A DNA stretch of 35,130 nucleotides, from NCBI GenBank assembly GCA_014238345.1, contig JABABF010000088.1, forward strand, positions 1 to 35,130, written 5' to 3'. The notes under the pieces were generated by a model. It was not told the origin of the DNA and ran no database searches. It saw only the letters and a list, made by a program, of their open reading frames with translations. This stretch comes from Gammaproteobacteria bacterium. GTDB lineage: Bacteria; Pseudomonadota; Gammaproteobacteria; JABABF01. A program made the translations under genes and the position numbers. Below are positions 11,980-32,463 of the stretch, piece by piece (positions within the stretch are counted from its first letter, which is position 1; each line of letters begins with the position of its first letter).

Positions 11980-14049
11980 TTAACGGCGGCGACGGGCGCT
12001 GACACCATCACGATGCCGCCGACCGCGCTCAGCACGGTCTTCATTAGCTGTATCAGCAACGATTTTTCTGCGTTCCTTCCCGGCCTCTTCGCTTTCCTTC
12101 GGCAGGGGAGAAATGCTCAAATCACTGCCAATATCTTGATCAAGAGAATCCCCGACAAGTAACGGCAAGGCAACGCTGAGCCGAATATGCCCGCGTAGTC
12201 TCTGGGGGTCTTGACCAAAAGACAATTCTAGGTGTTGCAATAGTATGGCTCGTCCATGCAAAATCTTGGCGAACCAACGCCACGAATCAATGTGCAACTC
12301 AGGTATGTCGCCCCGTATTTGGTAAACACGGTAGTGCTTTCGTTGCTCTTCGTACAGACGAATGTTGCGCGCAGTCATAGCGCGCAACAATGACACCCAT
12401 TCTCGCAATAACCATTCTTGGCGATCTGGTATGTCAGGAGTTTCTGCACCCCCAAACAAGCTCCCGCCATCGCCATCCTCATCTTCAGCCAAACCACCAT
12501 CCAACAATAATAAATCATCCTCTGCAACTACATCTAACGCTAATGTTTGATCATCACTGAGCGCGCTGAGCGACAATGGTTCGCTACTAGCCAACCACAA
12601 CTCATTGAGTCGAGGTACTTCACGAGCTGGCGTACGCTGTAAATCCAACTTCCCATCGGCGGCTCTACGAACAGAGTAGGATCGCACGCTGTAAGGAAAA
12701 TCTGGATCATTGGATACTACTTCATGCAGACGGGTAATGCGGGAAGCACTACCTGAAAGCCGTACAACCAGCAGGTTGTTATGATTCGACCAAATGGAGG
12801 AATGCATCAAGCGATGAAAGCCATAGGCCGCCCCATCGGTATCTGAATTGACATCGCCGCCCAAGTCCAAAAGACTGTGCAAGACCCAATTGAACAGCAA
12901 CCCAGCATCTCGCTGGCCCGCTAGGAATGCCCCTAATTGCCGATTCACTAAGTTATCAAAATCATCGGTTTCAGGGGCAACCTCTTCAACTGCAACATCA
13001 GTATCCTCTGCCACCTCTTCGTCTAACAAACTGCGATTCTGGTTTGCCTCGGCCAACTGATCAGCGATTTCCTGCGCCTTAAAGTATTGGTAAACTGTTG
13101 TCCATGCATAAAAAATACCAATTGACACCATGACCACACCAGCAATATTCAACACCAAAGATCGCAACCAACGACTCTCTCGGCTAAAGACCATGCGTAA
13201 GGCCCGCTTAGCTGGCAACAGTGGATAGAGGTGTTCTGGATTATCCCAGCACCACTCTAATATGTCCTGCTCAACTGACTCAACTCGTGCGGCTGTACTT
13301 CCACTAATGCCGAGATCAGATATAGAGAGGTTGCGCAGGAATAACTGTGGAATTTTTGGTAAAGGCGCAACAACTGGTGTCTCCTGTGTTTCAGCCTCAA
13401 GCGCATCAGATTCCTCGTCATTATCAGCTACTTGAGCTGCTTGCTTAGTCGCCTCTTGCTCTTGCAACTGGCTCAAATGACGGCGGATCGTAAACAACCA
13501 CTGTCGCACTTCCTGCCCAGTATTTTGTTGTGGTTGCGTCATATCCGCGCGCACTATGCCATCCATCACCACCACGATATAGCACTCAGAAAGCGAACGT
13601 TCACACCAGATATAGTGGTCGCCACCGCGCCCACCCCCCGTAATCATAGCCTGCACGCTCTCCCCAAGAAGATGAGCCTCGCGTGGGTAGAAAGCTGCTG
13701 ATACCTGCCCTGGGCGAACAACAAAATTCAGATAGGTTCCAGTATCTTCGCCATACAATTTCGACATCTCGCGTACTCGAGAACGCACCGTGGTCTTAGG
13801 ATCTGCTGTATAGGGGATGGTCTCCCGCACGGGGGCATTGGCAAAATCATTCAGGCTGGCTGGCGGCACGATCAGTTCGCCAGACAACATTTTATCCGGC
13901 AACAGCCCGGTCGTGATAGATCGCCGCACGCGGCGACGTTGCTCCCCTTGCTCTACTGCCGCATCCGTATCTGTGCCAGCAGCATCACCACCATCACCAC
14001 CAGCTAGCGGCGTCTCATCAGCAACACGAGGATCCATCTCATCAGCCAT
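11980..14049 (-). CDS. Bitopic inner-membrane pilus-assembly protein (occupies the PilO slot after the secretin; GspL/BfpC-like topology), function unproven
   Basis: The 689-aa ORF has GGAGG 9 nt upstream of ATG 14049. It has an acidic N-terminus, a single hydrophobic span (LVLNIAGVVMVSIGIFYAWTTVY, about residues 298-320), a large C-terminal domain and a very basic tail (RGRRHRDGVSARRRR). I recognised no family motif. The role is assigned from its position as the last gene of the pilus cluster. Confidence 0.55.
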   Translation of the reverse strand: MADEMDPRVADETPLAGGDGGDAAGTDTDAAVEQGEQRRRVRRSITTGLLPDKMLSGELIVPPASLNDFANAPVRETIPYTADPKTTVRSRVREMSKLYGEDTGTYLNFVVRPGQVSAAFYPREAHLLGESVQAMITGGGRGGDHYIWCERSLSECYIVVVMDGIVRADMTQPQQNTGQEVRQWLFTIRRHLSQLQEQEATKQAAQVADNDEESDALEAETQETPVVAPLPKIPQLFLRNLSISDLGISGSTAARVESVEQDILEWCWDNPEHLYPLLPAKRALRMVFSRESRWLRSLVLNIAGVVMVSIGIFYAWTTVYQYFKAQEIADQLAEANQNRSLLDEEVAEDTDVAVEEVAPETDDFDNLVNRQLGAFLAGQRDAGLLFNWVLHSLLDLGGDVNSDTDGAAYGFHRLMHSSIWSNHNNLLVVRLSGSASRITRLHEVVSNDPDFPYSVRSYSVRRAADGKLDLQRTPAREVPRLNELWLASSEPLSLSALSDDQTLALDVVAEDDLLLLDGGLAEDEDGDGGSLFGGAETPDIPDRQEWLLREWVSLLRAMTARNIRLYEEQRKHYRVYQIRGDIPELHIDSWRWFAKILHGRAILLQHLELSFGQDPQRLRGHIRLSVALPLLVGDSLDQDIGSDLSISPLPKESEEAGKERRKIVADTANEDRAERGRRHRDGVSARRRR

Positions 14050-14153
14050 CAGACCTTGCCTCCCCCTGTCCTGTTTTCACTATATGACTGCATAACGATA
14101 GTCCGCAAAAAGTGGGGAACCATTATTTATGCCCACCTATACCTGCGCCTGCG

Positions 14154-15866
14154 TCAATTATTAATCACAACCGGCGTGATCATTACGATGGTTTCCACCT
14201 CGGCCCAATTTTGGTTCTTGTTAATATCAAAGTCAGTATTTGCGGTCTTACCATAATTTCCTCGACGACGACGCAAACCGCTCAGCACCAAAGATTCCCC
14301 CGACTGCAACATGGCACGCTGGTTGAAAACATTTTCTGTCAGCGAAGGCAAGTTGACCTGGGAGCCGTTGCCAACATCAATAGCGGCACCAATCGTAGCT
14401 TCGCGCAATGTACCAGTCACCTGCAACACCACACGCCTACTGTCGAGTATATTCACTAGTGCATAGAAACTGACACCAGACTCAATTGTGCCTGGCTCAA
14501 ACACAACATTAGAGCCGAAACTATCAACATTGCGCGAGATCTCGGAAATATAAGAAAGCGTTTCGCTACGCTTCACCTCCACAGCCTGATGGTTGTACAC
14601 CAGGGCTCTAGGTGCCGTCTCTACACTGACCTCTCCTTGGGAACGCAAAGCGGTCAACACCGAACTGATGTAGTGCGAGCCATCTGCAGACCCTGAAATA
14701 TGCTCAGGCGTATTGCTACTAGCAATGGTTAATGCATCCCCAGCAAACGCCACACTGACATCCGAGCCCAGCAAGCGAGATTGCACTACTGACCAGTCCA
14801 CGCCGAAAGAATGTGCGTCGTTTAATGTCACCTCAATAACGCGAAACTCAATTATCATTTTGCGCTGCATGTCGGTATTCAGATCATTTATAAAACGTTC
14901 TACCGCCAATACTTTGGCAGCCGGAGCTGTAACAGAAATTGTCGCACGACTAATATACTGCTCTTGTGAACCTTCGCCGTCGAGGATGGCATCAACAGCA
15001 CTTTGAAGATCATCCCAGAATTCGCCGCCATTCTCTTCAAAGCCAACAAACTGGTTACTCGAACCAAAAGAGGCGCTGATACTGCCTCCACCGCCCGATT
15101 GCACCCCCGCATTACCACCGCCGCCGCCACTTGAACCAATATCGTAATCTTGGTCACCCTGCGGGTGCATCATGCGGAAAGAGCGAGTCAAATAAGCATG
15201 CCAATGGAGTGCTTCACCCTCGGCTTCTACTGTATAAGCATAGTCTGTCAGCTGTGTGACTCGATCCAGCATCTCTTGCACTGTACCTTCGAAATCCAGA
15301 GTAACGGGGCGCCCTGCGTCCAACCAGCTATCTCCGGACATCAACTGCTCCAGTTCACCAGCCAGCCTTTTGTTGCCAGCTTCTTTCTTGATCGCTACTC
15401 GCAATCCCTTCGCCTGCACTTGCTCGTCTGCTATACCATAGAGAATCAAGGGTGCGTCTTCGATTTGCAACATCACCTGATTCATGAGCCACTCCAACGG
15501 CAGATCCCGTGCATTAACCACTACGCGCTCTTGCAACCACGCCATTTGTGCATCGCGCGACACCCACTCAAAGGCGGTATAGGGCGAGTCATGGAAGCGC
15601 ACTAAAGGGCGCTCAGGGAACTGCGACTCACGCAATTGCTCCATATCATCTTTCAGGTAAAAGCGATGTTCATTAATCTGATTAGCGATATCACCACCAG
15701 ATAGTGATCTAATGATCCCACACCCAGATAACGGCATCAGCACTAATGCCAGTAGCCCCAGCACACTTAAACTTTGCCCACCGCTACTGATGATGCTTCG
15801 CACGACCCGTCCTCGCCCTACTAGCCATAGCCCAGCACTTGCCGCACTTGTCCTGTTTCTAATCAT
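14154..15866 (-). CDS. Type IVb pilus outer-membrane secretin, lipoprotein (R64 PilN / BfpB-like)
   Basis: The 570-aa ORF has GAGGA 5 nt upstream of the ATG and a lipobox LSG|C after a hydrophobic signal. A Gly-rich linker (GSSGGGGGNAGVQSGGGG) follows. The C-terminal secretin-domain pattern is VVLQVTGTLREA...QRAMLQSGESLVLSGL...VETIVMITPVVI. Confidence 0.8.
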   Translation of the reverse strand: MIRNRTSAASAGLWLVGRGRVVRSIISSGGQSLSVLGLLALVLMPLSGCGIIRSLSGGDIANQINEHRFYLKDDMEQLRESQFPERPLVRFHDSPYTAFEWVSRDAQMAWLQERVVVNARDLPLEWLMNQVMLQIEDAPLILYGIADEQVQAKGLRVAIKKEAGNKRLAGELEQLMSGDSWLDAGRPVTLDFEGTVQEMLDRVTQLTDYAYTVEAEGEALHWHAYLTRSFRMMHPQGDQDYDIGSSGGGGGNAGVQSGGGGSISASFGSSNQFVGFEENGGEFWDDLQSAVDAILDGEGSQEQYISRATISVTAPAAKVLAVERFINDLNTDMQRKMIIEFRVIEVTLNDAHSFGVDWSVVQSRLLGSDVSVAFAGDALTIASSNTPEHISGSADGSHYISSVLTALRSQGEVSVETAPRALVYNHQAVEVKRSETLSYISEISRNVDSFGSNVVFEPGTIESGVSFYALVNILDSRRVVLQVTGTLREATIGAAIDVGNGSQVNLPSLTENVFNQRAMLQSGESLVLSGLRRRRGNYGKTANTDFDINKNQNWAEVETIVMITPVVINN

Positions 15867-15946: not shown

Positions 15947-16618
15947 TTAGCGGTAGCGCTCCACCACTGTATCTAGAGAGTGCGGGGGATCTAAGATGCG
16001 CTTGGCCTGCAGAGCGTCGCCACAACTCACTGCACGCCCGGTATAGAGTCCCACAGTACTACCCGACTCCCGCAAATAGACCGGGAAGCCCAAGGTATCA
16101 AGGGTCGAATACAGATGCTGTGCACTAGCCATATCATCATAGACAGCTATACGCAGTGTCCATCGGTATTGATCTGCACCAGCCCCCGCCCGCTGACACT
16201 TGGCCTCTTCCCTGCGCATGGAAGCCGCAATTGCCGCCGCTCGTTTACGGGGATCAACAACACGTGCTTTTTTAGTCTGAGTTGCCGCGGATTTAGCAGC
16301 TTTCTTGGCAGCTTTCTTGGCAACTTTTGATTTTTTCGCTGAGGATTTAGTGGTTGCCTTAGCTGCGGCTGCTTTGTCCGTAACCAGCGGGGCTGGCTCT
16401 GTAATAGCGCCACCAGTTCGCGCCGAAAAATCAAATGATTCACATGAAGAAAGTAGTAGGAACACGGGCACCGCCATCAGCATCCCTAACGCCTTAAACG
16501 CCTTATCAGCCCCAGAACCAGAACCAGCACTAATAAGCGCCCTAGCTAATGCCCCTGAGTTCCCCGAACTCACCCCTAGCTGTTTAAATTCTGTCATTTT
16601 GTCTCTCGCCTTATTCAT
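15947..16618 (-). CDS. Lipoprotein with a Lys/Ala-rich basic linker and a C-terminal SPOR-like peptidoglycan-binding domain
   Basis: The 223-aa ORF has AGGA 8 nt upstream of the ATG and a lipobox LSS|C. It has a low-complexity stretch KKSKVAKKAAKKAAKSAATQTKKAR. The C-terminus WTLRIAVYDDMASAQHLYSTLDTLGFPVYLRESGSTVGLYTGRAVSCGDALQAKRIL fits the SPOR pattern (beta-alpha-beta-beta repeat, 'W.v.vg.f....A..l...L...G'). Confidence 0.7.
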   Translation of the reverse strand: MNKARDKMTEFKQLGVSSGNSGALARALISAGSGSGADKAFKALGMLMAVPVFLLLSSCESFDFSARTGGAITEPAPLVTDKAAAAKATTKSSAKKSKVAKKAAKKAAKSAATQTKKARVVDPRKRAAAIAASMRREEAKCQRAGAGADQYRWTLRIAVYDDMASAQHLYSTLDTLGFPVYLRESGSTVGLYTGRAVSCGDALQAKRILDPPHSLDTVVERYR

Positions 16619-16642: not shown

Positions 16643-17695
16643 CTACTTTGACTTATCAGCATCAGCACCAGCACCAGCATCAGGACTCTTTGTTGGAGTG
16701 GGGTCGTCGCTACGCTGCACCGCTAGCGTAGCCAAACCGTATCGACGATCCAGTGCCTTGGACATACGATCCGCTTGACGCTTGCTCATATCACGACCGA
16801 CATAGAGACCGCTAAAAACTCGAGAGCCACTTTGAACCTGCGACAAATAGGAGGTGAAATTATCTGAGCGCAACCGCTTCAACATACGCTGAGCACCCGC
16901 ATCACTATCGTAGACCGCAACACGCACTGCCCACCGATTACGCCGACTACGTTTTGATGGTTGTGATTGAGCCTGCTCCGCCCGCTCAGCCCGCCGCCGC
17001 TCCGCACGCTCCCGCCGCTGGTCACGACGAGACAGCGGCGCCACATCAGTAGCAGCTGCCCTCCGACTAGTGCGCTGCTCACCTTGACATGCTGGCAGGG
17101 CTCGCTCTAGGCGCACAGGAGAAGTTGAGCAACGCAACGCAGTTTTGTCAACCTTGGTGTGCCGGTCAGCATCACGCACCACTACCACTCGATTCGGATA
17201 GTAAATGTCTGCCACCAACGGCCGGTTCATCAGCAACAGCTGTTGCAAGGCTTCCTCAAAGCAGTCAAAACGCAGCTTATAAGGCTGCACTATGCGGCGA
17301 TCTTCTTCTGGCTTCCATTCAAGACGCATACCGTAGTGACCCGCCAGCCGTTGCACTGTATGAGACAGATCCGAGGCAGCGACATCTAAACAGTGGAGAC
17401 CCCGTCGCGGCACCACATTGATCGTTTCTGGCGTATTGTCGTGCCCAGCACGAATAGCTGATCCGCTAATAGCGCGCGACCCACTATCACTAACGGAAGC
17501 AGCAAGTCCAGATGACCCAAGATCGGTGCTAGCACCTACTGGCACCTCAACATTCCACAACCCACCGCCAGAGCCCACGGAAGAGCAGGCACCGAGTGTC
17601 CAAACCATCGCGACAAGCGCCAGACTTGGCAACAGGCGCAAACGCGAAAAGCGTGAGCACACTATTCCTGTGTTTACTCCTATGCCTATTCCCAT
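16643..17695 (-). CDS. PilL/TcpQ-like pilus lipoprotein fused to a C-terminal SPOR-like domain
   Basis: The 350-aa ORF has AGGAG 9 nt upstream of the ATG and a lipobox LGA|C. The central segment LDVAASDLSHTVQRLAGHYGMRLEWKPE...FEEALQQLLLMNRPLVADIYYPNRVVVVRD has the STN/TcpQ-like pattern seen in PilL proteins. An Arg-rich linker (RRDQRRERAERRRAERAEQ) follows. The SPOR-like end is WAVRVAVYDSDAGAQRMLKRLRSDNFTSYLSQ...GLYVGRDMSKRQADRMSKAL. Confidence 0.65.
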   Translation of the reverse strand: MGIGIGVNTGIVCSRFSRLRLLPSLALVAMVWTLGACSSVGSGGGLWNVEVPVGASTDLGSSGLAASVSDSGSRAISGSAIRAGHDNTPETINVVPRRGLHCLDVAASDLSHTVQRLAGHYGMRLEWKPEEDRRIVQPYKLRFDCFEEALQQLLLMNRPLVADIYYPNRVVVVRDADRHTKVDKTALRCSTSPVRLERALPACQGEQRTSRRAAATDVAPLSRRDQRRERAERRRAERAEQAQSQPSKRSRRNRWAVRVAVYDSDAGAQRMLKRLRSDNFTSYLSQVQSGSRVFSGLYVGRDMSKRQADRMSKALDRRYGLATLAVQRSDDPTPTKSPDAGAGADADKSK

Positions 17696-17991: not shown

Positions 17992-19989
17992 TCAGCACGG
18001 GGCTGCCACGGTGGCAGGGTTGGGATCTGTGGGGCATTTCGGGCCAATACACTGCATACAACTCAATGCCCCCACCGTCGATGCCTCGATCACAACTGTC
18101 GTTGTATTCACGGCAGCACCCGCGCTATTGTCACGCGCCATATTCAACAAATCTGTCTGCAAGCTAGCGCTAGCACTACTGTCGCTGATTGCAGGACTGA
18201 GCATGCGAAACGGGTTGTGCATGCTAATCTCAGTGGGCCAGACGAAATCGACCACCGCATGTTCCCAACCCGGCACGGGCCCCAAGGAAGCCGCATAGGG
18301 AGTGCTAGCATAACTATAGCCCTGCTCATCCCACGGCCAGTTGCGCGCACCATGGGCGAGGACAAAATCCACATCGCGCAATTCTAGCCGCTCCACATAA
18401 ACATGGTCATGTCGCAATGCAGTTTTGGGGCCCAGCGATACGACTGGGGAGTTGTACAGATCAAGCGCACTGCGTTGCCGAATTAATGATGATGGATCAG
18501 TGGTCGGCAGACCACCGATCACCAGGTTGTCGGGATCGTCTAGATCACGACTGCCCGCAAAAGCAAAGCCAGCCACCTGAGCAGATACCTGATGCGAACC
18601 ACGGTAGCTCAGACCAGCTGGCTGCCCCAGCTCGCGCTGCCCCGCTACGATCGAAGTGCTATATTGCCGCAAATAATCCCACAGTTCCACGGTTATCGTC
18701 CCAGAACTAGTGGCGGCGGCAAGGATCGTGTCGGTAGAAGCCAAACTCACATGAGTACCCGGACGTATGACCAACACATTGTTGTGCCAATCAAATGATC
18801 TGGGGCTGTACGGAGCCACGCCATAAGGAAAATAATTCGTGCCGTAAGCCGAACCAGATGTACCGTAGTGAGCAACGCAACAGGCTCCCGCTTGATCGGC
18901 CTCGCCAGGACGTGCTGCCAATACCGCCAAACCCGCCGATGGAAAATGTGGATCCTCGGCTAGGCGGGCGAATTGCACTGCAGTCTCAACGACTAATGCC
19001 TGCGTGCTATCAATGCCGTAAGGGGCGAGACGCAATGCCCCATAGTACGGGCTAAGGATGGACTCGGGGGGGAGAGCAACCCGTGCGCCGGGGGCATCAA
19101 GACGCACATTGCCGCCGAGCACTAATAGACCTGCTCGCAACGCAGACAAAATATCTAATTCAGTCGGATTTGATGGCGGCTGCAACAACTCCTCTTCAGA
19201 GAGCGTATACGCCTCGTTACGGCGCTGCACCTCAATGCCAACATTAGAAAGCGTTGTGCAATTGCCACTGGTCAGAGCATTGGCATTTTGCACGCGTGAA
19301 GATGGCACTAACGCAGCAATGTAATGCGCCATGCAGGCAAATGGACGGGGCAATTCCATATACAACCGCAAGCCTTGCTGACCAGCAAAGTCCGCCAGCT
19401 CTTCCGCCGTGTTGATCGCTACATCAAGATCCGCATAGGAGGTACTGGAACTCGCCACTCGCCACGCAGATGCCCCGGTGGTTGGCACGGGTTGCAATCT
19501 CAGGGCACCACCAAGTACAGATTCGAGCGCCAAAGCCCTCCTGGTTCCTCCCAGCAGCTGATCCGCACTATCGGTTACATCCCCACGAATAATATCCAAT
19601 TCAGTGCGCCACTCTGTCGGCGGTATATATCCCTCCCGCAAGAGGCGCCGCACACCAGAGATATCAGCTAAGTCCATGTTGCCGTCGCCATTGCAATCGT
19701 CGTCGAGTTCTTCAATACCAGCAACCGTCGGTGTCACTAAGAACTCTTCGACACAGAAGTCTACTGGCCACACCTGATTATGAGTACGGTAGAGCAACGC
19801 CGCATCAACAATTTCGCGCAGCTCAGCGGCTGCACGGTCAGCCAAAGAGAATAGGTGAGCCTCGCGGCGGTGCTGTAGTTGTAGCGAGAAAAAGAGTAGT
19901 AGCACTGATAGCACCAGGGATAGCTCGAGCAATGTCACGCCGCGCACCGCCCACCGCTGGCGGATGCCTGTGCCTAGGGAGTCGGGCAT
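17992..19989 (-). CDS. Giant pilin-like protein 3 (class III signal peptide, 665 aa)
   Basis: GGGAG lies 6 nt upstream of ATG 19989. The leader is MPDSLGTGIRQRWAVRG|VTLLELSLVLSVLLLFF (Glu at +5). It shares the N-terminal module with the two upstream paralogs (AALLYRTHNQVWPVDFC...DCNGDGNMDLAD...LLREGYIP). The C-terminus is Cys-rich (LSCMQCIGPKCPTDPNPATVAAPC). The start overlaps the upstream gene by 16 nt. Confidence 0.8.
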   Translation of the reverse strand: MPDSLGTGIRQRWAVRGVTLLELSLVLSVLLLFFSLQLQHRREAHLFSLADRAAAELREIVDAALLYRTHNQVWPVDFCVEEFLVTPTVAGIEELDDDCNGDGNMDLADISGVRRLLREGYIPPTEWRTELDIIRGDVTDSADQLLGGTRRALALESVLGGALRLQPVPTTGASAWRVASSSTSYADLDVAINTAEELADFAGQQGLRLYMELPRPFACMAHYIAALVPSSRVQNANALTSGNCTTLSNVGIEVQRRNEAYTLSEEELLQPPSNPTELDILSALRAGLLVLGGNVRLDAPGARVALPPESILSPYYGALRLAPYGIDSTQALVVETAVQFARLAEDPHFPSAGLAVLAARPGEADQAGACCVAHYGTSGSAYGTNYFPYGVAPYSPRSFDWHNNVLVIRPGTHVSLASTDTILAAATSSGTITVELWDYLRQYSTSIVAGQRELGQPAGLSYRGSHQVSAQVAGFAFAGSRDLDDPDNLVIGGLPTTDPSSLIRQRSALDLYNSPVVSLGPKTALRHDHVYVERLELRDVDFVLAHGARNWPWDEQGYSYASTPYAASLGPVPGWEHAVVDFVWPTEISMHNPFRMLSPAISDSSASASLQTDLLNMARDNSAGAAVNTTTVVIEASTVGALSCMQCIGPKCPTDPNPATVAAPC

Positions 19990-24530: not shown

Positions 24531-25289
24531 TTAGGGCATCGAACCAACAGCCGCACAGGGGTCTAATGCTGCGCTACTCGCAAATGCTCCCAATCCCCCC
24601 AATGCAACGGCCTGCACCGCAGCTTCATAACCTTGCACCGAGCTATCACTGGCAATGGCGTTGGTAATTGGTGTACGGAGCGTCACGGTGGCGCGATTTA
24701 TACTTCTATCCTCTTGTAACGCCACCCGGTGTCTCCCTAGGTAAGGGAGAATCCGTCTACTAGCCTGGAACTCTGTCATATTTTCTAGCATCGGGAGTTG
24801 TACTAGTATATGGGTCAGTTGACGCTCCGCAGGACGTGTACCCACCTCCCCCGTAATCGCCAGCACTGAAGCCTCTAAACTCGGGGGGTATCGCTCATAG
24901 TAGACATCGTAGAAAGTACTGGTCAACGCATTTGCTCCGGCCTGCACATCGGTCAACGACAACGACAAGCTGGCGTGAGAGTTTAGCTGGCCATTGCTGT
25001 TGACCACCACCAAACGCCTGTCATCTGCACCTGACTCGAAAAGCTCCGTCAATCCCTGCTCAATCGCCCGACAATTCTGCCAATAGAATCGTTCTGCCCT
25101 AAGCGCTATATCCTCCATGATCACTAGACTTAGCTGACCCTGAGCATCCTTGCGGGAATCCTCACGCAGAAAAACCGCCGCAGAAGCGATGACCACGATC
25201 ACGGCCAGTGAGATAGATAGCTCAATCAGCGTAGTGGCGCGCTGGCGGCGATACCGCAAATCATAAATAGGGCGCGATTGCTGCGTCAT
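24531..25289 (-). CDS. Minor pilin-like protein (252 aa) with Ala at the -1 position
   Basis: The leader is MTQQSRPIYDLRYRRQRA|TTLIELSISLAVIVVIASAAVFL. It has Glu at +5 and the hydrophobic alpha1-N helix typical of type IV pilins. Confidence 0.75.
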   Translation of the reverse strand: MTQQSRPIYDLRYRRQRATTLIELSISLAVIVVIASAAVFLREDSRKDAQGQLSLVIMEDIALRAERFYWQNCRAIEQGLTELFESGADDRRLVVVNSNGQLNSHASLSLSLTDVQAGANALTSTFYDVYYERYPPSLEASVLAITGEVGTRPAERQLTHILVQLPMLENMTEFQASRRILPYLGRHRVALQEDRSINRATVTLRTPITNAIASDSSVQGYEAAVQAVALGGLGAFASSAALDPCAAVGSMP

Positions 25290-25467: not shown

Positions 25468-26274
25468 TCAAGCCACCAACAAGGCGGCGGCGATGCTAGC
25501 GAGCACCAACGGCACCGCCAAGCCCCCCCCCCGTAGCGGCCATCTGTCAGCTAACAACAACATGACCACTAGGCAAACCAGCCCGACCCAGCCGCCCCAA
25601 GCCCCTGCGGCAGCGGCCAGCGCCAGCAATTCCAGCTCTGGCCAGACACGATGCCGCCACCGCAGCCACAGCGCAACCAAGGCCACCGCGCCACCCGCCG
25701 CCCACAGCGCCACAGCGGCTGTAACAGGGTCGGACACGGCCGATAACAGGCCGAGCCACAGCGGCCACCAAGCAATGGCAGTCGGCAACCAGTCATGCTC
25801 CAACACCAAACACAGTGCAGCGAGCCAGCAACCAAGTGCCACCCACAGCATCAGTAGCACCACCAGCTCGCCGCCCACGCGCCAAGCGGCGAGAGAGAAT
25901 AGCACCACCGCCATCAATTCCAGCCATAGATAACGGGCGGGGATGCGTGCGCCACAGCCAGCACAACAGCCGCGCAACCAAAGATAACTCAGTAACGGGA
26001 TGTTGTGCCAAGCGGGAATCGGGCATTGGCAAGCTGGGCAATGCGAGCGCGGCACGGCTAGATTGTAGGGAGCAGAGCCACCAGGCAACTGCTCGGGAGC
26101 CACACCGCCTAACAGTGCCACACGACGCTCGGCCATCAATGGCAAGCGGTGCACCATCATATTGAGGAAACTCCCCGTGCTGGCACCTACCAGTATTGAC
26201 AGCATCGGGCCAAGCCATGGCACCGCCTCCAGCACAAGACGCAATTCGCCCAACCATCCCCACTCAATCATCAC
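25468..26274 (-). CDS. Prepilin peptidase (A24 family) homolog with an intact N-terminal CxxC...CxxC domain but no recognisable GxGD catalytic motif
   Basis: The 268-aa ORF has GSFLNMMVHRLP, then CPACQCPIPAWHNIPLLSYLWLRGCCAGCGARIPARY (collinear with P. aeruginosa PilD CPRCGHEIRPWENIPLVSYL..CSSC). It also has WLPT...PLWLGLL and LLALAAAAGAWGGW (PilD: GDFKLLAMLGAWGGW). No GD dipeptide occurs anywhere in the ORF. Confidence 0.75.
   Translation of the reverse strand: MMIEWGWLGELRLVLEAVPWLGPMLSILVGASTGSFLNMMVHRLPLMAERRVALLGGVAPEQLPGGSAPYNLAVPRSHCPACQCPIPAWHNIPLLSYLWLRGCCAGCGARIPARYLWLELMAVVLFSLAAWRVGGELVVLLMLWVALGCWLAALCLVLEHDWLPTAIAWWPLWLGLLSAVSDPVTAAVALWAAGGAVALVALWLRWRHRVWPELELLALAAAAGAWGGWVGLVCLVVMLLLADRWPLRGGGLAVPLVLASIAAALLVA
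25523..25532. repeat. C10 homopolymer (G10 on the coding strand) near the 3' end of the peptidase-like gene
   Basis: Direct read: aag-cccccccccc-gtagc. It encodes ...LRGGGLA..., about 22 codons before the stop. Confidence 0.95.
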
Positions 26275-26448: not shown

Positions 26449-27117
26449 TCAGAACGAGTAGAGGGCATCCACAGCGCTGAGCGTGGCACTATCCCCTGGA
26501 GGGGCGTAGGTGGCAGCCTGATACTGTGCAGTGGCGAGGTAGTTGAGACCCCCCGACGTTGCCATAGTGTTTTGCTCAGCTGCATTCGAAGCAATCGCTG
26601 CCGCTCCCAAGTCTAATGCATTGACTAATGGAGCCACGGCATAGCTAGGAACGCTATCGTGACGAATCACGATGGAGCGAGTGTTGAATGAAAACAACAC
26701 CACATCACCACCCCATGGATTCGCGCTTGCGAACCCAGCGCTGGAGCCAGTAGAGCGCGTTGCACCTGCACCAGCGGCAGCGGTGAAGCCTTGCGCCGCT
26801 GTGGCGAGACGTGAGTCACCCAGTGCATCAGTGATGAGAGCCGTGGCTGTGTCTGACACCGGGCACGAAGATGTGCCACAGTTCAGAAGGCCAGAGCCTG
26901 CTGGGCCAACGGCGCCGCTGATGCGGGCGATGGCTGATACGAGATTGGCACTAAGTGCCGCTGCCGCAGTGACGGTCTGGGAGCGCTGTACCTGCCTAAA
27001 GGAGATAAGCGCACCCGCTACGATCAGGGCAATGATGACCACAACGACCGATAATTCGATCAGTGTGGCGCCCTGCTGTTGCTGTTGCCCGCGAAGGGCT
27101 TGCAGTTTTTGGTTCAT
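26449..27117 (-). CDS. Type IVb pilin B (222 aa, 16-aa leader); candidate major subunit
   Basis: GGAG lies 9 nt upstream of the ATG. The leader is MNQKLQALRGQQQQQG|ATLIELSVVVVIIALIVAGALISF. There is one Cys pair (NCGTSSCP). It is paralogous to pilin A through to the C-terminus (ANPWGGDVVLFSFNTRSIVIRHDSVP.. versus ANPWGEDIELLSYNLVSIVVRHHGVP..). A strong terminator follows. Confidence 0.85.
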   Translation of the reverse strand: MNQKLQALRGQQQQQGATLIELSVVVVIIALIVAGALISFRQVQRSQTVTAAAALSANLVSAIARISGAVGPAGSGLLNCGTSSCPVSDTATALITDALGDSRLATAAQGFTAAAGAGATRSTGSSAGFASANPWGGDVVLFSFNTRSIVIRHDSVPSYAVAPLVNALDLGAAAIASNAAEQNTMATSGGLNYLATAQYQAATYAPPGDSATLSAVDALYSF

Positions 27118-27467: not shown

Positions 27468-27608
27468 CTATACCTTAAGCCTTAAGCGATTAGGGCGCCG
27501 CCAGTAAAATCGGCTGAGTGCCGAGGCGAGTAGCAAGGCAATCGTCACCACCACGATGGAGAACTCAACCAGAGTTCCTCGTGGCTACTCTAGTGATTTA
27601 GTGCTCAC
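27468..27608 (-). pseudogene. Decayed pilin N-terminal remnant (in-frame TAG before the processing site, truncated after the alpha1-N helix)
   Basis: The minus strand reads GTG AGC ACT AAA TCA CTA GAG TAG CCA CGA GGA ACT CTG GTT GAG TTC TCC ATC GTG GTG GTG ACG ATT GCC TTG CTA CTC GCC..., that is (M)STKSLE*PRG-TLVEFSIVVVTIALLLASALSRFYWRRPNRLRLKV*. It resembles RG|ATLIELSVVVVIIAL of the flanking pilins but lacks one residue. It is interrupted by a stop and ends after 37 codons. A 7-bp duplication (ccttaag x2) lies at 27473-27486. Confidence 0.6.
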
Positions 27609-27653: not shown

Positions 27654-28346
27654 TTAACGGCTCAGGAGCAAGTATAAGCCGTCTACAAAGCTGAAATTTT
27701 CATCGGGAGCGCTGATCGGACTATCGGCGAACAACTCATAATCCGAGCCTGAGGCAATGACAAAATCAGCGTTGTCTCTCAATGCCTCTGCCCCAGCAAT
27801 GTCAGTCGCCACTTGCGCTGCCCCCGTATCCAGTACATTCGCAAATCCCTGTAATGCATGAGTTGGCACCCCGTGGTGGCGCACCACTATAGACACCAGA
27901 TTATAGGATAGCAACTCTATATCCTCGCCCCAAGGGTTGGCACCTCTAAAGAGTGCTGGCGAAGCCAATCCTACTATATCACCCTCACTGGCGATGCGAA
28001 AAACCACATCATCTAAAAGATCGGCAACGGTCATCTCAAAATCATGGGCGAATGTCCAAATACCACTATTTGGTAAGAACTCAACATATACGCCAGCACC
28101 CACCAGCCCAGCACTACCGACCAGACTCTGTACCGCTGCAATAATCCTCGTGTTCTGCTCTACTGCAGATGCAATGGTTCTGGCTCGCTGTGCTTGGAGA
28201 AAAGACACCAACGCCCCCGCTATAATCAAAGCGATAATCACCACCACCACTGACAGTTCAATCAGTGTGGCACCGCGCCGACGTTGCCAACGTTGCTTGC
28301 CTTGATTGAGATCAAGTGATCGTTTAGGGGAAGTATAGACTCTCAT
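27654..28346 (-). CDS. Type IVb pilin A (230 aa, 25-aa leader), cysteine-free
   Basis: GGAGG lies 7 nt upstream of ATG 28346. The leader is MRVYTSPKRSLDLNQGKQRWQRRRG|ATLIELSVVVVIIALIIAGALVSF. There is no Cys anywhere in the ORF. Confidence 0.85.
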   Translation of the reverse strand: MRVYTSPKRSLDLNQGKQRWQRRRGATLIELSVVVVIIALIIAGALVSFLQAQRARTIASAVEQNTRIIAAVQSLVGSAGLVGAGVYVEFLPNSGIWTFAHDFEMTVADLLDDVVFRIASEGDIVGLASPALFRGANPWGEDIELLSYNLVSIVVRHHGVPTHALQGFANVLDTGAAQVATDIAGAEALRDNADFVIASGSDYELFADSPISAPDENFSFVDGLYLLLSR

Positions 28347-28531: not shown

Positions 28532-29569
28532 TCACAATGACTGCAAGTTCTGGGTATTAGTGTAGACAGCGAAGATCATCATGCCATAGCCTAAGCCGAC
28601 TACGGCAAAAAGTATCGCTTGCACGGGTTTAACCGTCAGTCTCACACGGTCGAGTACCGCCTCACCACTCTTGCGCGAGACACGTTGCATGGCATCCATA
28701 AAACCGCGGTGTTGAGCCAATAACTTCAACAGTGACATCTCGCTTTTGCCAAGGAATCCAACATCAATCACATCGGCAAGTGTGCCGCCCTCCTGCAGAC
28801 GGTTCATCATCTTGCGCAAGTACAACCGCGCCAATGGCGGGGAACTGTCGTGCATCAGGCGCAATACACTGCGCATCTCCATGCCTGACAACAGCACTAA
28901 TGATATCGATTCAACGGTCTTGGCTGCCGTATTTTGCCGGTACATGGAAAAGATCGGCAGCTGGTCTATGAACTGTCGACCAGGTCCTGCATAGCGCGTT
29001 AGGAACATACCGAATAGCACGATGACCGTAGTAGATGTGACGAAGAAAATCAGCGTGTGATGGACAAAAAAATCGCCAATATGGTAGACAATGCGACCGG
29101 GCAGAGTCCATTCCTCAATCGGCTTGATATGCAGAATCAGCGGATAGAACCGTATCCGCATCTGGGTGTACATGGTCGCCACAAGCGCTAAAAAGAGCAC
29201 GGGTGGCAACAGCTTGCCCAGTATTTCGCCTAATACACCGACCTCACTCTCCATGATATCGGCAATGCGTAAGCCATTGTCAACAAAATTGGGGGTTTGT
29301 TCGCCAGCGGCCAACGACCCGACCACTACTGGGTCGAATAATCCCTGCATACCTCGCGCAACTGGCTGACCTGCACGCAATGCCTCGTACATGCGCTTGG
29401 CCACCATCTGATCCACCGGATTTCCGACAGCACGAATGTTGATCAGAGCATCGCGTAACGGCACTCCCTCTTTGAGCAGGGAAAAGAAAGAGCGCACATA
29501 GTCCGACTGTTGTTTACGCCCAAATTGCAAGCGCAATACACCATCGTTTAAATCCTCAAAGAATGACAT
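28532..29569 (-). CDS. Pilus assembly platform protein (GspF/PilC family; R64 PilR / BfpE-like)
   Basis: The 345-aa ORF has AGGTG 5 nt upstream of the ATG. It has two T2SS-F-like repeats (LLKEGVPLRDAL...LRAGQPVARGM...SLAAGEQT and LLSGMEMRSVL...LQEGGTLADVI...SLLKLLAQHRG), each followed by hydrophobic TM segments. Confidence 0.8.
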   Translation of the reverse strand: MSFFEDLNDGVLRLQFGRKQQSDYVRSFFSLLKEGVPLRDALINIRAVGNPVDQMVAKRMYEALRAGQPVARGMQGLFDPVVVGSLAAGEQTPNFVDNGLRIADIMESEVGVLGEILGKLLPPVLFLALVATMYTQMRIRFYPLILHIKPIEEWTLPGRIVYHIGDFFVHHTLIFFVTSTTVIVLFGMFLTRYAGPGRQFIDQLPIFSMYRQNTAAKTVESISLVLLSGMEMRSVLRLMHDSSPPLARLYLRKMMNRLQEGGTLADVIDVGFLGKSEMSLLKLLAQHRGFMDAMQRVSRKSGEAVLDRVRLTVKPVQAILFAVVGLGYGMMIFAVYTNTQNLQSL

Positions 29570-29656: not shown

Positions 29657-31450
29657 TCAAGATGCCGCCTGCTGTTGGCTGTCGGTCGATCCATCTGCGC
29701 TTTGACCTGAAGACGCTTGCTCTTCTTCCTTCTCCCGAGCTATGGCGGCATCCAAGGCCTCTTGGCGCAATTTGTAATCAAATTGCACTTGGGTCGAGGA
29801 GTCGAGCAGACCAATGGCGCGCTCAGCTACCAGAGGGTCTACTGCTCCGCAGAGAATATGACTCATAACATGATGGACAATAGGGTCCCAACCGCGCTCC
29901 ATCAAGTACCCGCGCCAGCCCATCTGATCGCGCTGACGAATAAAAGCACGACCATCATCATCGACCATTACCACCTCGGCAGCTAAGCGCCGTCCCGAGA
30001 TACCAGACCCTTCACACTGACTGCAACCAGTCCCCAAGAAGTACACCTCATTCTCATGCCCTTCAAAAATCTTTTTGTAACGGTTGCGGGTGTAAATGTC
30101 CAGGCGATCAACATATTTGCTCATTGGCACACGGCAGTTCTCGCAGCTCTGCGGCAACAGGCGCTGATTAATCAAACAGACGAGGAAATTGGGGTCGTAG
30201 ATCATCGATGCCTCAACACCGAGATCCTCAAGACGGGAGGGAATCGACAACACATTGGAGGAGTGCAATGTGGTCACGCACAATTTACCTGAAGTCGCGA
30301 GATCCTTGATCGCTTCCGCCGTGCTACGATCCTTGACCTCACCCAGCATATTGATATTGGTATCCCACCGGTTTAGTGAAGCACGCAGGGTATCCCAGCC
30401 ACTCTCTGCGACATGCATGGCGATCGGAACATGAGTTACATTCGGCAACATGCGCTCCACGGGTTCCTCTAGGGAGACAATCTTGTATTGCGGATCCACT
30501 GTCTCCAACAGGGCAGTCAGCGATGTGCTCTTGCCTGAACCCGTAGGGCCAGACATTACAATCACACCATAGGGGCGAGCCATGGCCTCTTTCATCAGCG
30601 AAATCTGCAAGGGGGAATAGCCCGTATTTTCAATCTTGATGCCACCAGTATCAGGACGCCAAATGCGCAAAAAGATATCAATACCACGCACATCGGGTGC
30701 CGTGCTAAGACGGATCGGCACAACCAACGACCCCATGCGAAAGTCGAGCGAACCATGCAATGGTTTATCCAGCATAAACTGCAATGAGCCGCGTTTGGCC
30801 TCGGCATTGAACATGTAGTTCCCCAGCGCGACCAGCTCCTCGCGACCCACTGTATCAAACAACAAGAGGCGGCCATCAATGCGAAACTTGATATTGGTCA
30901 ACTTCTCGCGCATCTCCATATGGATGTCCGAGGCTCCGCGACTGAGGGCGGCCTCAACAATGGCATGGAACAGGCGCTGCACATCAGTAGTCGTGTTACT
31001 GATCTGCGCCATCTCCTGTGCAGCCACATCAGCCGCAGCCGCTGTCTCGTCCGTCAGCCGCTCGCGCAAGTAACGCACGACATTCTGAGTGGCCGGACGC
31101 ACCACTGGCTGATTGCCCATACTGGCCAACAAGTTCTTGGCTGTCTGCACGCTCGGATGCGAAGGCTTAGAGGTGACCAACGTGGCTTTGTCTGCTAATA
31201 AACAGAGGAAGTCGGGCTGCTCTACAGCCCATTTGTAAAGCTGCCCGTGAGCACTAGTGACCGGACGCTGGTCAGGCAAATCTTTACGTGCTAAGATCGC
31301 AGGAACGCCCAATAATTCGGCCTGCTCTACGATGTAATCGGCCTGGGTGGTGCCCTCCTCTTGCTGGCTAGAATCGACAATGACGGTAGTGTCATCATCG
31401 CCCCCACCGAATAGACGGGAAAGCAATCCGCTTTTTTCTTCTTCAGCCAT
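29657..31450 (-). CDS. Pilus assembly ATPase (GspE/PilB superfamily; R64 PilQ / BfpD-like)
   Basis: The 597-aa ORF has GGGAGA 6 nt upstream of the ATG. Motifs seen: GASDIHMEM...IKFRIDG, Walker A SGPTGSGKST, Asp box NMLGEVKDRSTAE, His box VTTLHSSN, and a tetracysteine CENC...CSQC. Confidence 0.92.
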   Translation of the reverse strand: MAEEEKSGLLSRLFGGGDDDTTVIVDSSQQEEGTTQADYIVEQAELLGVPAILARKDLPDQRPVTSAHGQLYKWAVEQPDFLCLLADKATLVTSKPSHPSVQTAKNLLASMGNQPVVRPATQNVVRYLRERLTDETAAAADVAAQEMAQISNTTTDVQRLFHAIVEAALSRGASDIHMEMREKLTNIKFRIDGRLLLFDTVGREELVALGNYMFNAEAKRGSLQFMLDKPLHGSLDFRMGSLVVPIRLSTAPDVRGIDIFLRIWRPDTGGIKIENTGYSPLQISLMKEAMARPYGVIVMSGPTGSGKSTSLTALLETVDPQYKIVSLEEPVERMLPNVTHVPIAMHVAESGWDTLRASLNRWDTNINMLGEVKDRSTAEAIKDLATSGKLCVTTLHSSNVLSIPSRLEDLGVEASMIYDPNFLVCLINQRLLPQSCENCRVPMSKYVDRLDIYTRNRYKKIFEGHENEVYFLGTGCSQCEGSGISGRRLAAEVVMVDDDGRAFIRQRDQMGWRGYLMERGWDPIVHHVMSHILCGAVDPLVAERAIGLLDSSTQVQFDYKLRQEALDAAIAREKEEEQASSGQSADGSTDSQQQAAS

Positions 31451-31487: not shown

Positions 31488-32312
31488 TTAGAATTTCAGC
31501 GCAAAAGTATCCTCGCCACGGAAAACCATCACTCCCACACCGCTATCATCCGCTGCTCCGATCTCAAAGCCAGCTATGCGATCGCCAGTTTTTATTTCGT
31601 AATATTCGCCACCAAAAGAGGCGACTAAGCGCACTGGCTGTTCGGGCAATACATCGCCGCCATCCATGTTGCTAGCCCAATGGATCTTCACCAAATCATC
31701 GACCAGAGCCAAGCCAGCGCGATCAGCATCTGAAATATCAGCATCGTCGCTACCGCTGTCAATCTGGGAACTCTGTTGGTCGCCCTGAATAAGTTGTTCA
31801 GGATTCAATGCCAAAGCGAGGTCACCGATGCCAACCTTGTAGAAATATAACAGGAGCTGTGGAGGCAAACTCGCTTTATCGCGTTGAGCCTTATCGACCA
31901 ATGCACTATAGACATCCAACAATTCGCCCATTTTCTGGAGCACCATAATGCGCTCATTGATCAGCCGATACTCCTGCACCAAGGTCTGAGATGCTTGGGC
32001 ATTGAGTAATTCAGTCGGCAGAGATATCTGGTATTTCTCCAGCATCCCCTGTAATTCTTGCAACTGTTGCAAGAGAGCGAGAGCCGCCCCCCCCTGCTCA
32101 GCTTCCCCAAAGGAGCCTGGCAAACTGTCGAAGCCCCCCACATCTTGCTGTTGGGCGTACGACGAAGGAGGTAATACCATTGCCACCGCCACCGCCATTG
32201 CCATCGCCATTGCCATGAACATGGATCTGGTGTACACCACAATACCAATACTGTTGCCGCTAATGCCTCGGCGCTCGCATGCGCATGGCTGTTGTTGACC
32301 GTGCATTGACAT
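31488..32312 (-). CDS. Pilus cluster first gene: signal-anchored periplasmic protein with a coiled-coil region and a PilP/GspC-HR-like C-terminal beta domain (putative)
   Basis: The ORF track extends to 32414, but the 5' part is AT-rich. AGGGAG (32320-32315) precedes ATG 32312 and ATG 32306. The hydrophobic segment is MFMAMAMAMAVAVAMVLPPSSYA. A Gln/Leu-rich helical region follows. The C-terminus VRLVASFGGEYYEIKTGDRIAGFEIGAADDSGVGVMVFRGEDTFALKF has the '...g..y.v..Gd.i.g..v..I....v.l' pattern of PilP/GspC HR domains. It lies immediately upstream of the ATPase, like pilP-pilQ in R64. Confidence 0.5.
   Translation of the reverse strand: MSMHGQQQPCACERRGISGNSIGIVVYTRSMFMAMAMAMAVAVAMVLPPSSYAQQQDVGGFDSLPGSFGEAEQGGAALALLQQLQELQGMLEKYQISLPTELLNAQASQTLVQEYRLINERIMVLQKMGELLDVYSALVDKAQRDKASLPPQLLLYFYKVGIGDLALALNPEQLIQGDQQSSQIDSGSDDADISDADRAGLALVDDLVKIHWASNMDGGDVLPEQPVRLVASFGGEYYEIKTGDRIAGFEIGAADDSGVGVMVFRGEDTFALKF
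32178..32216. repeat. In-frame hexanucleotide repeat (GCN-ATG/GTG x6.5) encoding (Ala-Met/Val)n in the signal-anchor segment
   Basis: Direct read of the plus strand: cat tgc cac cgc cac cgc cat tgc cat cgc cat tgc cat. On the minus strand this is M A M A M A M A V A V A M. Confidence 0.9.
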
Positions 32313-32463
32313 GGCTCCCTGACCCCCTGTAATCCATTGATTGCTGTTGATAATCATCATTCTTGGTTTATTGACGCTGATGCCAGTGTCACTTTGCCCT
32401 CTCAAATATGCCAAGATACCGCGGGGCTAAAACCGCCCCAGCACACCGATAAGACCCTCTCAT

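Follow-up and report, generated by a model that had tools for sequence, protein, structure and literature searches.

A type IVb-lineage pilus cluster on a gammaproteobacterial chromosome and its unnamed family of relatives

To our knowledge, type IVb (T4b) pili are known almost only from enteric pathogens, as the toxin-coregulated pilus (TCP), the bundle-forming pilus (BFP) and CFA/III/Longus, and from conjugative elements such as R64 and PAPI-1. Long leaders, Ala at +1 and Glu at +5 of the mature pilin, and mature chains of about 205 residues are the textbook traits of the class. The contig JABABF010000088.1 of an uncultured gammaproteobacterium of probably marine origin (GenBank assembly GCA_014238345.1), whose 35,130 analysed nucleotides are referred to below as the window, carries on its minus strand, at positions 11980-32414, a cluster of pilus genes of this lineage. 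We put at roughly three in four the probability that it encodes a complete, chromosomally inherited and non-conjugative filament machine of the T4b lineage, belonging to an unnamed family of mostly uncultured, largely marine Gammaproteobacteria. An earlier description of the locus, made from the letters of the DNA (hereafter the sequence-only reading), had presented it as an undescribed variant of the T4b machinery, and no published account of this architecture was found in the literature searched.

Comparison with described type IVb systems

The thin-pilus locus of R64/ColIb-P9 and PilL-V loci on integrative conjugative elements or plasmids, such as those of Yersinia similis, Citrobacter and Stutzerimonas, resemble the cluster in having a PilN-family lipoprotein secretin, a TcpQ/PilL-like lipoprotein, a T2SSF platform and long-leader pilins, and they also share with it a bitopic protein after the secretin, a small periplasmic protein before the ATPase and the gathering of these genes in a single locus. 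Using the letters of the R64 pil genes, the order of the window reads P-Q-R-S-(S)-U-x1-G-G-G-L-SPOR-N-O, where P is the small protein before the ATPase, Q the ATPase, R the platform, S a pilin, U a prepilin-peptidase homolog, x1 a minor pilin-like protein, G a giant pilin-like protein, L the TcpQ/PilL-like lipoprotein, N the secretin and O the bitopic protein. In contrast to R64, which has the N-O block upstream of P-Q-R, the cluster carries it at its 3' end. It is without PilM, the PilT lytic transglycosylase, Rci with its shufflon and tra genes; its O and P proteins match no PAP_PilO or PilP models; its L protein bears a SPOR domain and is accompanied by an extra SPOR lipoprotein; three pilin-like proteins of 665-797 aa take the place of the one PilV; its peptidase homolog is probably dead; and its context is that of chromosomal housekeeping genes.

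The BFP of enteropathogenic Escherichia coli (EPEC) is like the window in its secretin BfpB, its TcpQ-family protein BfpG, the bitopic layout of BfpC and the ATPase BfpD, which belongs to the same ATPase clade. Its operon (bfpA-G-B-C-U-D-E-F-P-H-I-J-K-L), however, runs G-B-C-U-D-E and has the secretin module before the ATPase, is plasmid-borne, and encodes BfpF as a retraction ATPase, BfpP as an active peptidase and BfpH as a lytic transglycosylase, besides three minor pilins of small size. TCP and CFA/III/Longus are, like the cluster, stand-alone and non-conjugative T4b systems in which the secretin is a lipoprotein, has a partner of the TcpQ/CofC kind and is accompanied by a large minor pilin of the tip (TcpB or CofB), and TCP has no retraction ATPase; unlike the cluster, they have the secretin module upstream of the ATPase, a single large minor pilin and an active peptidase.

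The nearest annotated relative in both of our neighbor-joining (NJ) trees, with weak support, is a locus of the Aeromonas caviae plasmid pAC1520 (NZ_CP120943, L005, 12077-28504). Its secretin is 29% identical to that of the window (137 bits), and several pilin genes are likewise followed by genes for large proteins (667 and 734 aa), but these carry Sec-type rather than class III signals, the order is the canonical LT-L-N-O-P-Q-R-S, beginning with a lytic transglycosylase (LT) gene, and the locus adjoins DotD/TraH and TraJ-like genes for transfer. In the plasmid record this T4b-like locus is annotated only as hypothetical proteins.

Composition, placement and gene order of the cluster

The cluster is comprised of 14 intact minus-strand open reading frames (ORFs) and one decayed pilin fragment, spread over about 20.4 kb of a single strand, and all of the ATPase, platform, pilin, secretin and peptidase homolog genes lie inside it; the fifteen tightly packed genes previously counted are hereby accounted for. 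The spacing between genes ranges from -16 to +296 bp, with as single exception a 536-bp gap that contains a stop-interrupted pilin N-terminus (approximately 27468-27584). Among the parts are the ATPase (T2SSE), the platform (T2SSF), six prepilin-type proteins and three lipoproteins, namely the secretin, a protein combining TcpQ-like and SPOR domains, and a second SPOR protein. The pattern [GA]xTL[IL][ED]LS retrieved six intact prepilin N-termini, every one of which is encoded on the minus strand within the cluster; the shuffle expectation is 0.03. On one flank are found a tadA-like deaminase gene, guaA, guaB, queF and genes for a DegT aminotransferase, a cytochrome P450 and a short-chain dehydrogenase/reductase (SDR), and on the other fabG, fabD and yceD, which bears out the proposal of a stand-alone chromosomal cluster. 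Domain searches and an inverted-repeat scan detected in the 35-kb window no conjugation (tra/dot), recombinase, integrase, relaxase, type IV secretion system (T4SS) or SLT lytic transglycosylase genes and no shufflon-like inverted repeats; the absence from the window of PilT, Rci, a shufflon and conjugation genes, as claimed by the sequence-only reading, is thus confirmed. No retraction ATPase is encoded in the cluster, tRNA and Rfam scans of the window returned no matches, and a promoter and terminator scan gave nothing exceeding the shuffle expectation.

The lipoprotein secretin (14154..15866, minus strand; PF00263; lipobox LSGC) is of the T4b PilN/BfpB type. Among the NCBIfam models it scored best with TIGR02520 for T4b PilN (132 bits, below the equivalog cut-off of 288), followed by MshL (96 bits, below its cut-off of 250), PilQ (23 bits) and GspD (19 bits), and BfpB of EPEC was its sole match among solved structures (E 1.3e-24). 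In the NJ tree all of the 200 bootstraps (100%) placed it with R64-type PilN, BfpB and the secretin of the Aeromonas plasmid; the MshL-like proteins, which form a separate group, and E. coli HofQ and GspD fall outside this PilN/BfpB clade.

The assembly ATPase (29657..31450, minus strand; PF00437, E 7.6e-59), a member of the T2SSE/PilB superfamily, displays the Walker A motif GPTGSGKS and a tetracysteine motif and contains neither MshEN (PF05157) nor N1E. Its PF00437 score of 200 bits stands beside 214 for R64 PilQ, 201 for BfpD and 210 for the Aeromonas plasmid ATPase, with GspE at 546 and HofB at 489; with the GspE model it scored 180 bits (cut-off 630) and with the PilB model 169 bits (cut-off 676). 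It is 29% identical to R64 PilQ over residues 93-548 (155 bits), its best plasmid matches are T4b PilQ-type ATPases with 26-31% identity, and it formed a clade with R64-type PilQ and BfpD in 88 of the 100 NJ bootstraps, leaving GspE, HofB and generic PilB outside. Both proteins, whose placement the sequence-only reading had proposed as a check, are therefore found in the T4b clade and outside the T2SS (type II secretion system), type IVa (T4a) and MshL-like groups. Residues 1-150 of the ATPase form a region that is conserved in the family (e.g. W74, P96 and P119-A120) and has no Pfam domain; the O-slot protein may dock there with its cytoplasmic part.

The inner-membrane platform (28532..29569, minus strand; PF00482, E 1.2e-17, in two stretches), of the GspF/PilC/PilR type, has weak BLAST matches to a T2SSF protein of a Salmonella plasmid (E 1.6e-11) and to R64 PilR (E 2e-6). 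Overall, the Pfam and NCBIfam runs upheld the identities that had been given to the ATPase, platform, pilins and secretin.

For class membership we used the T4bP definition of Denise et al. 2019 (PMC6668835), whose MacSyFinder model treats pilD as a loner gene. The cluster shows the corresponding secretin lineage, ATPase branch, long-leader pilin (other than Phe at +1, and some 190-200 mature residues or more) and clustering of core genes, the peptidase homolog being present with its catalytic residues gone. The accessory proteins escape the current Pfam and NCBIfam models. Taken as a whole, the machine plainly belongs to the type IVb lineage.

Several other assignments were considered and rejected. 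The R64/IncI thin-pilus subfamily was set aside for the missing PilO and PilP matches, the different order, the lack of similarity to PilV, PilT and PilM, and the absence of transfer genes. A type II secretion system was rejected on the 19 bits obtained with GspD, the lack of GspC, L, M and I-K matches, and the position of E. coli GspE and GspD outside the clade, and an MSHA pilus on the lower score of MshL (96 bits) than of PilN (132 bits), the separate position of MshL-like proteins in the secretin tree, and an ATPase that lacks PF05157 and was compared in a tree without an MshE reference. For a type IVa pilus, the PilQ score is 23 bits, HofB and HofQ lie outside the clade, and the pilin leaders have 16-25 aa with Ala at +1, where type IVa pilins have short leaders and begin with Phe.

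Searches with the ATPase returned about 87 clusters scoring at least 240 bits, after which the scores drop to 173 bits (generic PilB/GspE). The members of this family are almost all metagenomic, the few names being "MAG: Gammaproteobacteria bacterium", and plasmid records contained none of them, all matches there having less than 31% identity. A profile scan of genome contigs with the ATPase alignment was dominated by generic Walker-A patterns and gave 4 family loci.

Close relatives of the window are L087 and L088, with secretins 64% and 71% identical, in which x1, three giants, L, SPOR, N and O are followed by the same SDR and P450 genes. Their flanking genes are 78-85% identical to those of the window while their pilus proteins are 35-71% identical, which points to vertical inheritance with fast-evolving surface parts. 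The G+C content is 0.49-0.58 within the cluster (window 12000-32000) and 0.62-0.64 in the flanking housekeeping genes. With the SDR and P450 genes lying beside the cluster in L087 and L088 too, the difference is suggestive of a composition bias or of an acquisition long ago rather than of a recent island.

A compact operon of 9-10 kb with the order P-Q-R-S-x1-x2-N-O, where x2 is a second minor pilin, was found in two complete genomes of 4.55 and 3.75 Mb (L093 and L097), with a TcpQ-like gene on the opposite strand after O, and, with the TcpQ-like gene first, in a complete 5.85-Mb genome (L096) and a TARA contig (L089). These operons share with the window homologous P, ATPase (38-49% identity), platform, major pilin, x1, x2, secretin and O proteins, the order of these genes, housekeeping flanks and a TcpQ-like gene nearby, but have 8-9 genes, in 9-10 kb as against the 20 kb of the cluster. 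The latter has in addition a duplicated pilin with a remnant and an in-cluster peptidase homolog; its x2 component is tripled and enlarged from 259-471 to 665-797 aa, its O protein is enlarged from 430-500 to 689 aa, and its L gene adjoins N and encodes a SPOR domain, next to an extra SPOR paralog. The cluster is an expanded form of the family, in which the x2 minor pilin has been tripled and enlarged.

Other members are arranged differently. In L091, SPOR-L, P, Q, R and S face a convergent unit of three pilin-like genes (426-514 aa), an intact peptidase, N and O, while the deep member L008, with an ATPase 39% identical to that of the window, has the canonical L-N-O-P-Q-R-S and, after it, three genes for proteins of 432-460 aa, of which two or more are pilin-like. 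All 11 R64-like loci from isolates retain L-(M)-N-O-P-Q-R-S. An annotated Salmonella plasmid has the T4b order S-U-ATPase-L-N-O-P-Q-R, and T4b gene order is thus already variable in annotated plasmids.

The sequence-only reading had described the locus as an R64 operon rotated to begin at P. The order can indeed be written in this way, but the relatives show a relocation of N-O that is the norm of the family: L087 and L088 share the order of the window, and the compact operons share P-Q-R-S-x1-x2-N-O, as the comparison of synteny that had been called for made clear. The N-O-last order, in which the inner-membrane module and the pilins lead and the outer-membrane module and O close the operon, therefore characterizes a separate ATPase and secretin family, and is neither a peculiarity of the window nor a derivative of R64. 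Because L is the first gene in L089 and L096, the change is a move of the N-O block to another place and not a true rotation; only the chance position of L beside N makes the window resemble a perfectly rotated R64.

Two further loci of the ATPase search are recorded here. L003 (13483-21773, in a 1.64-Mb genome, ATPase P0006) has P-Q-R-S and then, on the opposite strand, four tandem genes for 732-aa TMEM260_N (PF11028) proteins, which may glycosylate the pilin as glycosyltransferases; the 10 kb to each side of this locus showed no secretin. L007 (JAHRAN010000040.1) is a 2.5-kb contig binned as "Myxococcota bacterium" whose ATPase is 53% identical to that of the window; either the family extends beyond the Gammaproteobacteria or the contig is mis-binned.

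Pilins, peptidase homolog and accessory proteins

Pilin A (27654..28346, minus strand; N_methyl E 6.2e-6) has a 25-residue leader, a cleavage site G|ATLIE and a mature chain of about 205 aa with Glu at +5 and no cysteines. It aligns with the major pilins of the family, with which it has 'IR.AV..WA.GG' and 'ANPW.G.Y.L' in common; with solved structures only the alpha1-N helix is shared, and its globular domain is unlike that of any solved pilin. Its paralog pilin B (26449..27117, minus strand; N_methyl E 4.8e-5), with 36% identity, has a 16-residue leader, the same cleavage site G|ATLIE and a mature chain of 206 aa. The pilins have leaders of 16-25 residues, with Ala at +1 and Glu at +5. Between pilins A and B lies the pilin remnant (27468..27584, minus strand), which has no start codon and translates between two stops as PRGTLVEFSIVVVTIALLLASALSRFYWRRPNRLRLKV, also given as PRGTLVEFSIVVVTIALLLASAL...; it shares the DNA repeat family D1 with the N-terminal ends of both pilins and of the 698-aa protein.

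The 252-aa minor pilin-like protein of the x1 type (24531..25289, minus strand; N_methyl E 8.4e-4; cleavage A|TTLIE) has a weak phmmer match to x1 of L093 and is 35% identical to its L087 ortholog. The sequence-only reading had placed it in the V position, but no similarity to R64 PilV was found.

The three giants follow one another on the minus strand. Giant 1 (22057..24450; maximal ORF of 797 aa, likely starting at Met24) carries a class III signal motif with cleavage G|ITLID, giant 2 (19974..22070; 698 aa) a weak N_methyl match with cleavage G|ATLIE, and giant 3 (17992..19989; 665 aa) a class III motif with cleavage G|VTLLE; giant 2 overlaps its neighbours by 14 and 16 nt. They are mutual paralogs with 25-26% identity, matched in Pfam and the PDB over the alpha1 helix only. 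Giant 3 is 46% and 63% identical to its orthologs of L087 and L088, respectively, and the N-domain of giant 2 matches the x2 minor pilins (259-471 aa) of L089, L093 and L096, with the motif 'VDAA..(Y/W)...WP'. Because the N-domains of the giants are homologous to the single x2 of the compact operons, the giants are an amplified and enlarged form of the x2 component of the family. They share an acidic loop, 'DCN(G/A)D..D..D..G', located about 85-125 residues from the N-terminus, and C-terminal cysteine pairs, 'C..C...CP'; by its sequence the loop looks like a calcium-binding site. In L008 (14634-18642) and L091 (17284-21610) three tandem genes for proteins of 426-514 aa follow the pilins, at least two of the three per locus with prepilin-type N-termini. 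As these loci also carry three, tripled large minor pilins recur in the family and are not unique to the window.

The prepilin-peptidase homolog (25468..26274, minus strand) was recognized by A24_N_bact only (E 2.2e-27) and retains the 4-Cys N-terminal domain; it did not match Peptidase_A24 even at E 0.1, nor any NCBIfam model. In the alignment the Asp of 'xD-LEH..LPD' is replaced by Val and 'GxGD' by 'ELEL', whereas the homologs of L091, L008, the Salmonella plasmid and R64 retain GxGD and those of L091 and L095 still match Peptidase_A24. The earlier identification of a prepilin-peptidase homolog is hence correct as to the N-terminal domain, with both catalytic aspartates gone, and because of this loss the protein is probably inactive as a peptidase. 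The compact operons have no peptidase gene at all, and the L095 locus adjoins a standard pilD-coaE-zapD locus; the family evidently uses a prepilin peptidase encoded elsewhere. A scan of metagenome contigs with the homolog found only an unrelated intact peptidase.

Two lipoproteins precede the secretin. The L-slot protein (16643..17695, minus strand; 350 aa; lipobox LGAC) is TcpQ/BfpG/PilL-like with a C-terminal SPOR domain (E 5e-5). Its homologs in relatives match the TcpQ or PilL2 models more clearly than it does itself, and phmmer ties it to the L-like genes of L003, L089, L091, L093, L095, L096 and L098. The second lipoprotein (15947..16618, minus strand; 223 aa; lipobox LSSC) has a Lys/Ala-rich linker and a C-terminal SPOR-like domain, and although it gave no Pfam match, 71 aa of its C-terminus align at 41% identity with the stretch that Pfam defines as SPOR in its 350-aa neighbour (E 3e-9). 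It had been singled out as the SPOR lipoprotein of the cluster, which is correct for its SPOR-like domain but overlooks that the L-slot protein carries SPOR as well, and it had been assigned to the M slot, which it occupies by position only, having no similarity to R64 PilM. Peptidoglycan-anchoring roles are reportedly played by GspB/OutB and found in T4a machinery (PMC9239104, PMC5285504). The 350-aa lipoprotein is likely a secretin partner and a peptidoglycan anchor.

The P-slot protein, gene 1 of the cluster, lies upstream of the ATPase (31488..32414, minus strand); its start, earlier put at 32414, is more likely nearer 32312, which gives 274 aa. It begins with a hydrophobic anchor or signal, continues with a coiled-coil region and ends in a small beta domain, and has no Pfam or NCBIfam match. 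The gene just before the ATPase in six relatives provided a profile, free of the window sequence, on which hhalign gave a probability of 92.9% over 171 columns, and the family motif 'GG.YY.(I/L)(K/R)TGD(R/K)I' is present. The O-slot protein (11980..14049, minus strand; 689 aa), which follows the secretin, is a bitopic inner-membrane protein with a cytoplasmic part of about 295 aa, a single transmembrane (TM) segment (297-320) and a periplasmic part that includes an acidic linker, and has no Pfam, NCBIfam or PDB match. It is homologous to the 430-500-aa post-secretin protein of the compact operons (phmmer 2.8e-10; hhalign 97.5% over 275 columns). Judged by these alignments, both slots are occupied by conserved families. 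The 689-aa type of O is rare: a hidden Markov model (HMM) search of 1.84 billion representatives gave one 50%-identity cluster and three distant matches, and a word-indexed search with a 6-sequence O alignment only 3 proteins.

Both families were compared by hhalign with R64-type PilO and PilP, BfpC, BfpU and GspC. In size and in the position of the single TM the 430-500-aa O proteins of the compact operons are like R64 PilO (TM 188-206 of 431) and BfpC (169-187 of 402). None of nine O-family members matched PAP_PilO (PF06864), on which R64 PilO as a control scored 232 bits, and hhalign with R64-type PilO gave 5-82% depending on the alignment (82% and then 37% for O of L008), with negative controls below 1%. 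Likewise, none of eleven P-slot or upstream-of-ATPase proteins matched the PilP (TIGR03021) or GspC models; hhalign of gene 1 with R64-type PilP gave 5-29% by profile, confined to the C-terminal 50 residues or so. Because the comparisons of BfpU with PilP and of GspC with PilP also score below 1%, sequence methods cannot settle the link to PilP. The relationship of the L, N, O and P slots to R64 components that had been put forward is accordingly clear for N, as it is for the Q and R slots, and probable for L through its TcpQ-like domain, but finds no PilO or PilP model match for O and P, and the description of gene 1 as PilP/GspC-like comes down to position, size and topology.

Two genes from the cluster, at 6356-9262 on the minus strand, the window encodes a 968-aa polytopic membrane protein with no Pfam match, the N-terminal part of which is kept at the same position in L087 and L088 (49-64% identity).

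Proposed machine, alternative explanations and significance

BfpC/BfpU of BFP and PilO/PilP of R64 are thought to link the inner-membrane motor to the secretin. By analogy, the O-slot and periplasmic P-slot proteins would form an alignment subcomplex joining motor and secretin, while a hexameric ATPase docked on the platform would drive the polymerisation of pilin A and/or pilin B. In the 350-aa lipoprotein the TcpQ-like domain would serve as an N0-like partner that binds the secretin, a role shown for BfpG and TcpQ (PMC12531336), and the SPOR domains of the 350-aa and 223-aa lipoproteins would, by analogy with GspB/OutB and the T4a machinery, tether the outer-membrane complex to the peptidoglycan, which may offset the missing lytic transglycosylase. 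The 252-aa minor pilin and the three giants are predicted to prime assembly and to sit at the tip as an adhesive or interaction module, in analogy to TcpB, CofB and PilV. Because the in-cluster homolog has lost both catalytic aspartates, leader cleavage would have to come from a prepilin peptidase encoded elsewhere, and the rest of the genome would be expected to carry pilD and possibly pilT; the homolog itself may keep a methyltransferase or scaffold role. No dedicated retraction motor would be provided by the cluster, and its gene order would have arisen by moving the N-O block relative to the canonical L-N-O-P-Q-R-S.

A number of observations weigh against this interpretation. The peptidase homolog and the pilin remnant show some decay. 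The 350-aa lipoprotein matches TcpQ (PF10671) with E 2.8e-4 and 21 bits, below the Pfam cut-off of 27, while the BfpG control reached 75 bits. The O- and P-slot proteins of the window and of its relatives did not match the PilO and PilP models even at E 1, no reliable profile link to PilO/PilP or BfpC/BfpU was obtained, and the AlphaFold2 models have a predicted local distance difference test (pLDDT) score of 42 for gene 1 (single sequence, unusable) and a mean of 35.5 for the O-slot protein (3-sequence alignment). As a consequence of the missing model matches, unstable profile links and unusable structure models, the P- and O-slot assignments are made by position, size and topology only. The ATPase and secretin trees are NJ trees without TcpT, CofH and MshE references, in which the deep ATPase branches are unstable, and the roles proposed for the O, P, SPOR and giant proteins and for the peptidase homolog are taken over from homologous parts.

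In a different view the cluster works mainly as a T2SS-like or TCP/Cof-like secretion or display device, with a short pseudopilus that exports or presents large proteins (for example the giants or an unlinked substrate) and no long adhesive pilus. Pilin-like proteins of 665-797 aa are unusually large, the cluster has neither a retraction ATPase nor a lytic transglycosylase, the ATPase scores almost equally on the GspE and PilB models, and known T4b systems also secrete proteins, as has been reported for TcpF through TcpB (PMC9565799). The grouping of secretin and ATPase with T4b pilus systems and not with GspD/GspE, the conservation across the family of two major-pilin paralogs of about 205 aa, and the lack of a GspH-K-type pseudopilin set and of GspC, GspL and GspM matches nevertheless make such a device unlikely. 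Somewhat less credence still is given to a decaying, non-functional T4b remnant, which would account for the loss of both catalytic aspartates, the stop-bounded pilin fragment, a G+C content below that of the flanks and the first giant of L087, which is split into three ORFs. Against decay, none of the 14 ORFs is interrupted, even the three that run to 665-797 aa, and the genes of neighbouring giants overlap, by 14-16 nt; two other lineages keep this gene order with orthologs that are 35-71% identical; an external peptidase is normal for the family, since the compact operons carry none; and the split in L087, which comes from a long-read assembly of low coverage, may reflect an error of sequencing.

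It is very improbable that the cluster is the thin-pilus module of an integrated R64/PAPI-1-type element or plasmid whose transfer genes lie beyond the window. Its nearest annotated relatives are borne on plasmids or integrative and conjugative elements (R64, Pseudomonas and Xanthomonas plasmids, Aeromonas pAC1520), and the G+C content drops inside it, but housekeeping genes are found on both sides within 35 kb, integrase, relaxase, T4SS, Rci, shufflon and tRNA are all absent from this stretch, L087 and L088 share the chromosomal neighbours, family members in complete chromosomes of 3.7-5.8 Mb are also located between housekeeping genes, and no plasmid record has a family member, plasmid matches all being below 31% identity. 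A possibility we regard as doubtful is that of a distinct T4b subclass of uncultured marine Gammaproteobacteria, in which the giants, with their acidic loops and C-terminal cysteine pairs, would build a very large heteromeric tip or a thick alternative fibre, two SPOR anchors would replace the transglycosylase and the aspartate-less peptidase would be kept as a methyltransferase-only or scaffold protein. If true, this would be a functional specialisation without characterised counterpart, beyond a rearranged operon.

Returning to the filament machine of the T4b lineage as the preferred explanation, the permutation of gene order is in itself minor, and the value of the locus lies in an unrecognised environmental T4b family and in the unusual components of the sublineage. 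Together with the ATPase family of about 87 clusters, the cluster shows a third T4b lineage, which is chromosomal and free-standing and belongs to Gammaproteobacteria of the environment, most of them uncultured; it is marked by its own gene order and by accessory proteins that current HMMs do not recognise. The sublineage of the cluster has in addition SPOR lipoproteins next to its secretin, a peptidase homolog that is catalytically dead, and giant minor pilins in three copies. Its description would improve annotation models such as those of TXSScan and NCBIfam. These natural variants would allow one to ask which T4b accessory parts are essential, would give a view of the expansion of tip minor pilins, and would provide a test of how a secretin complex is fitted into the cell wall without a dedicated transglycosylase.

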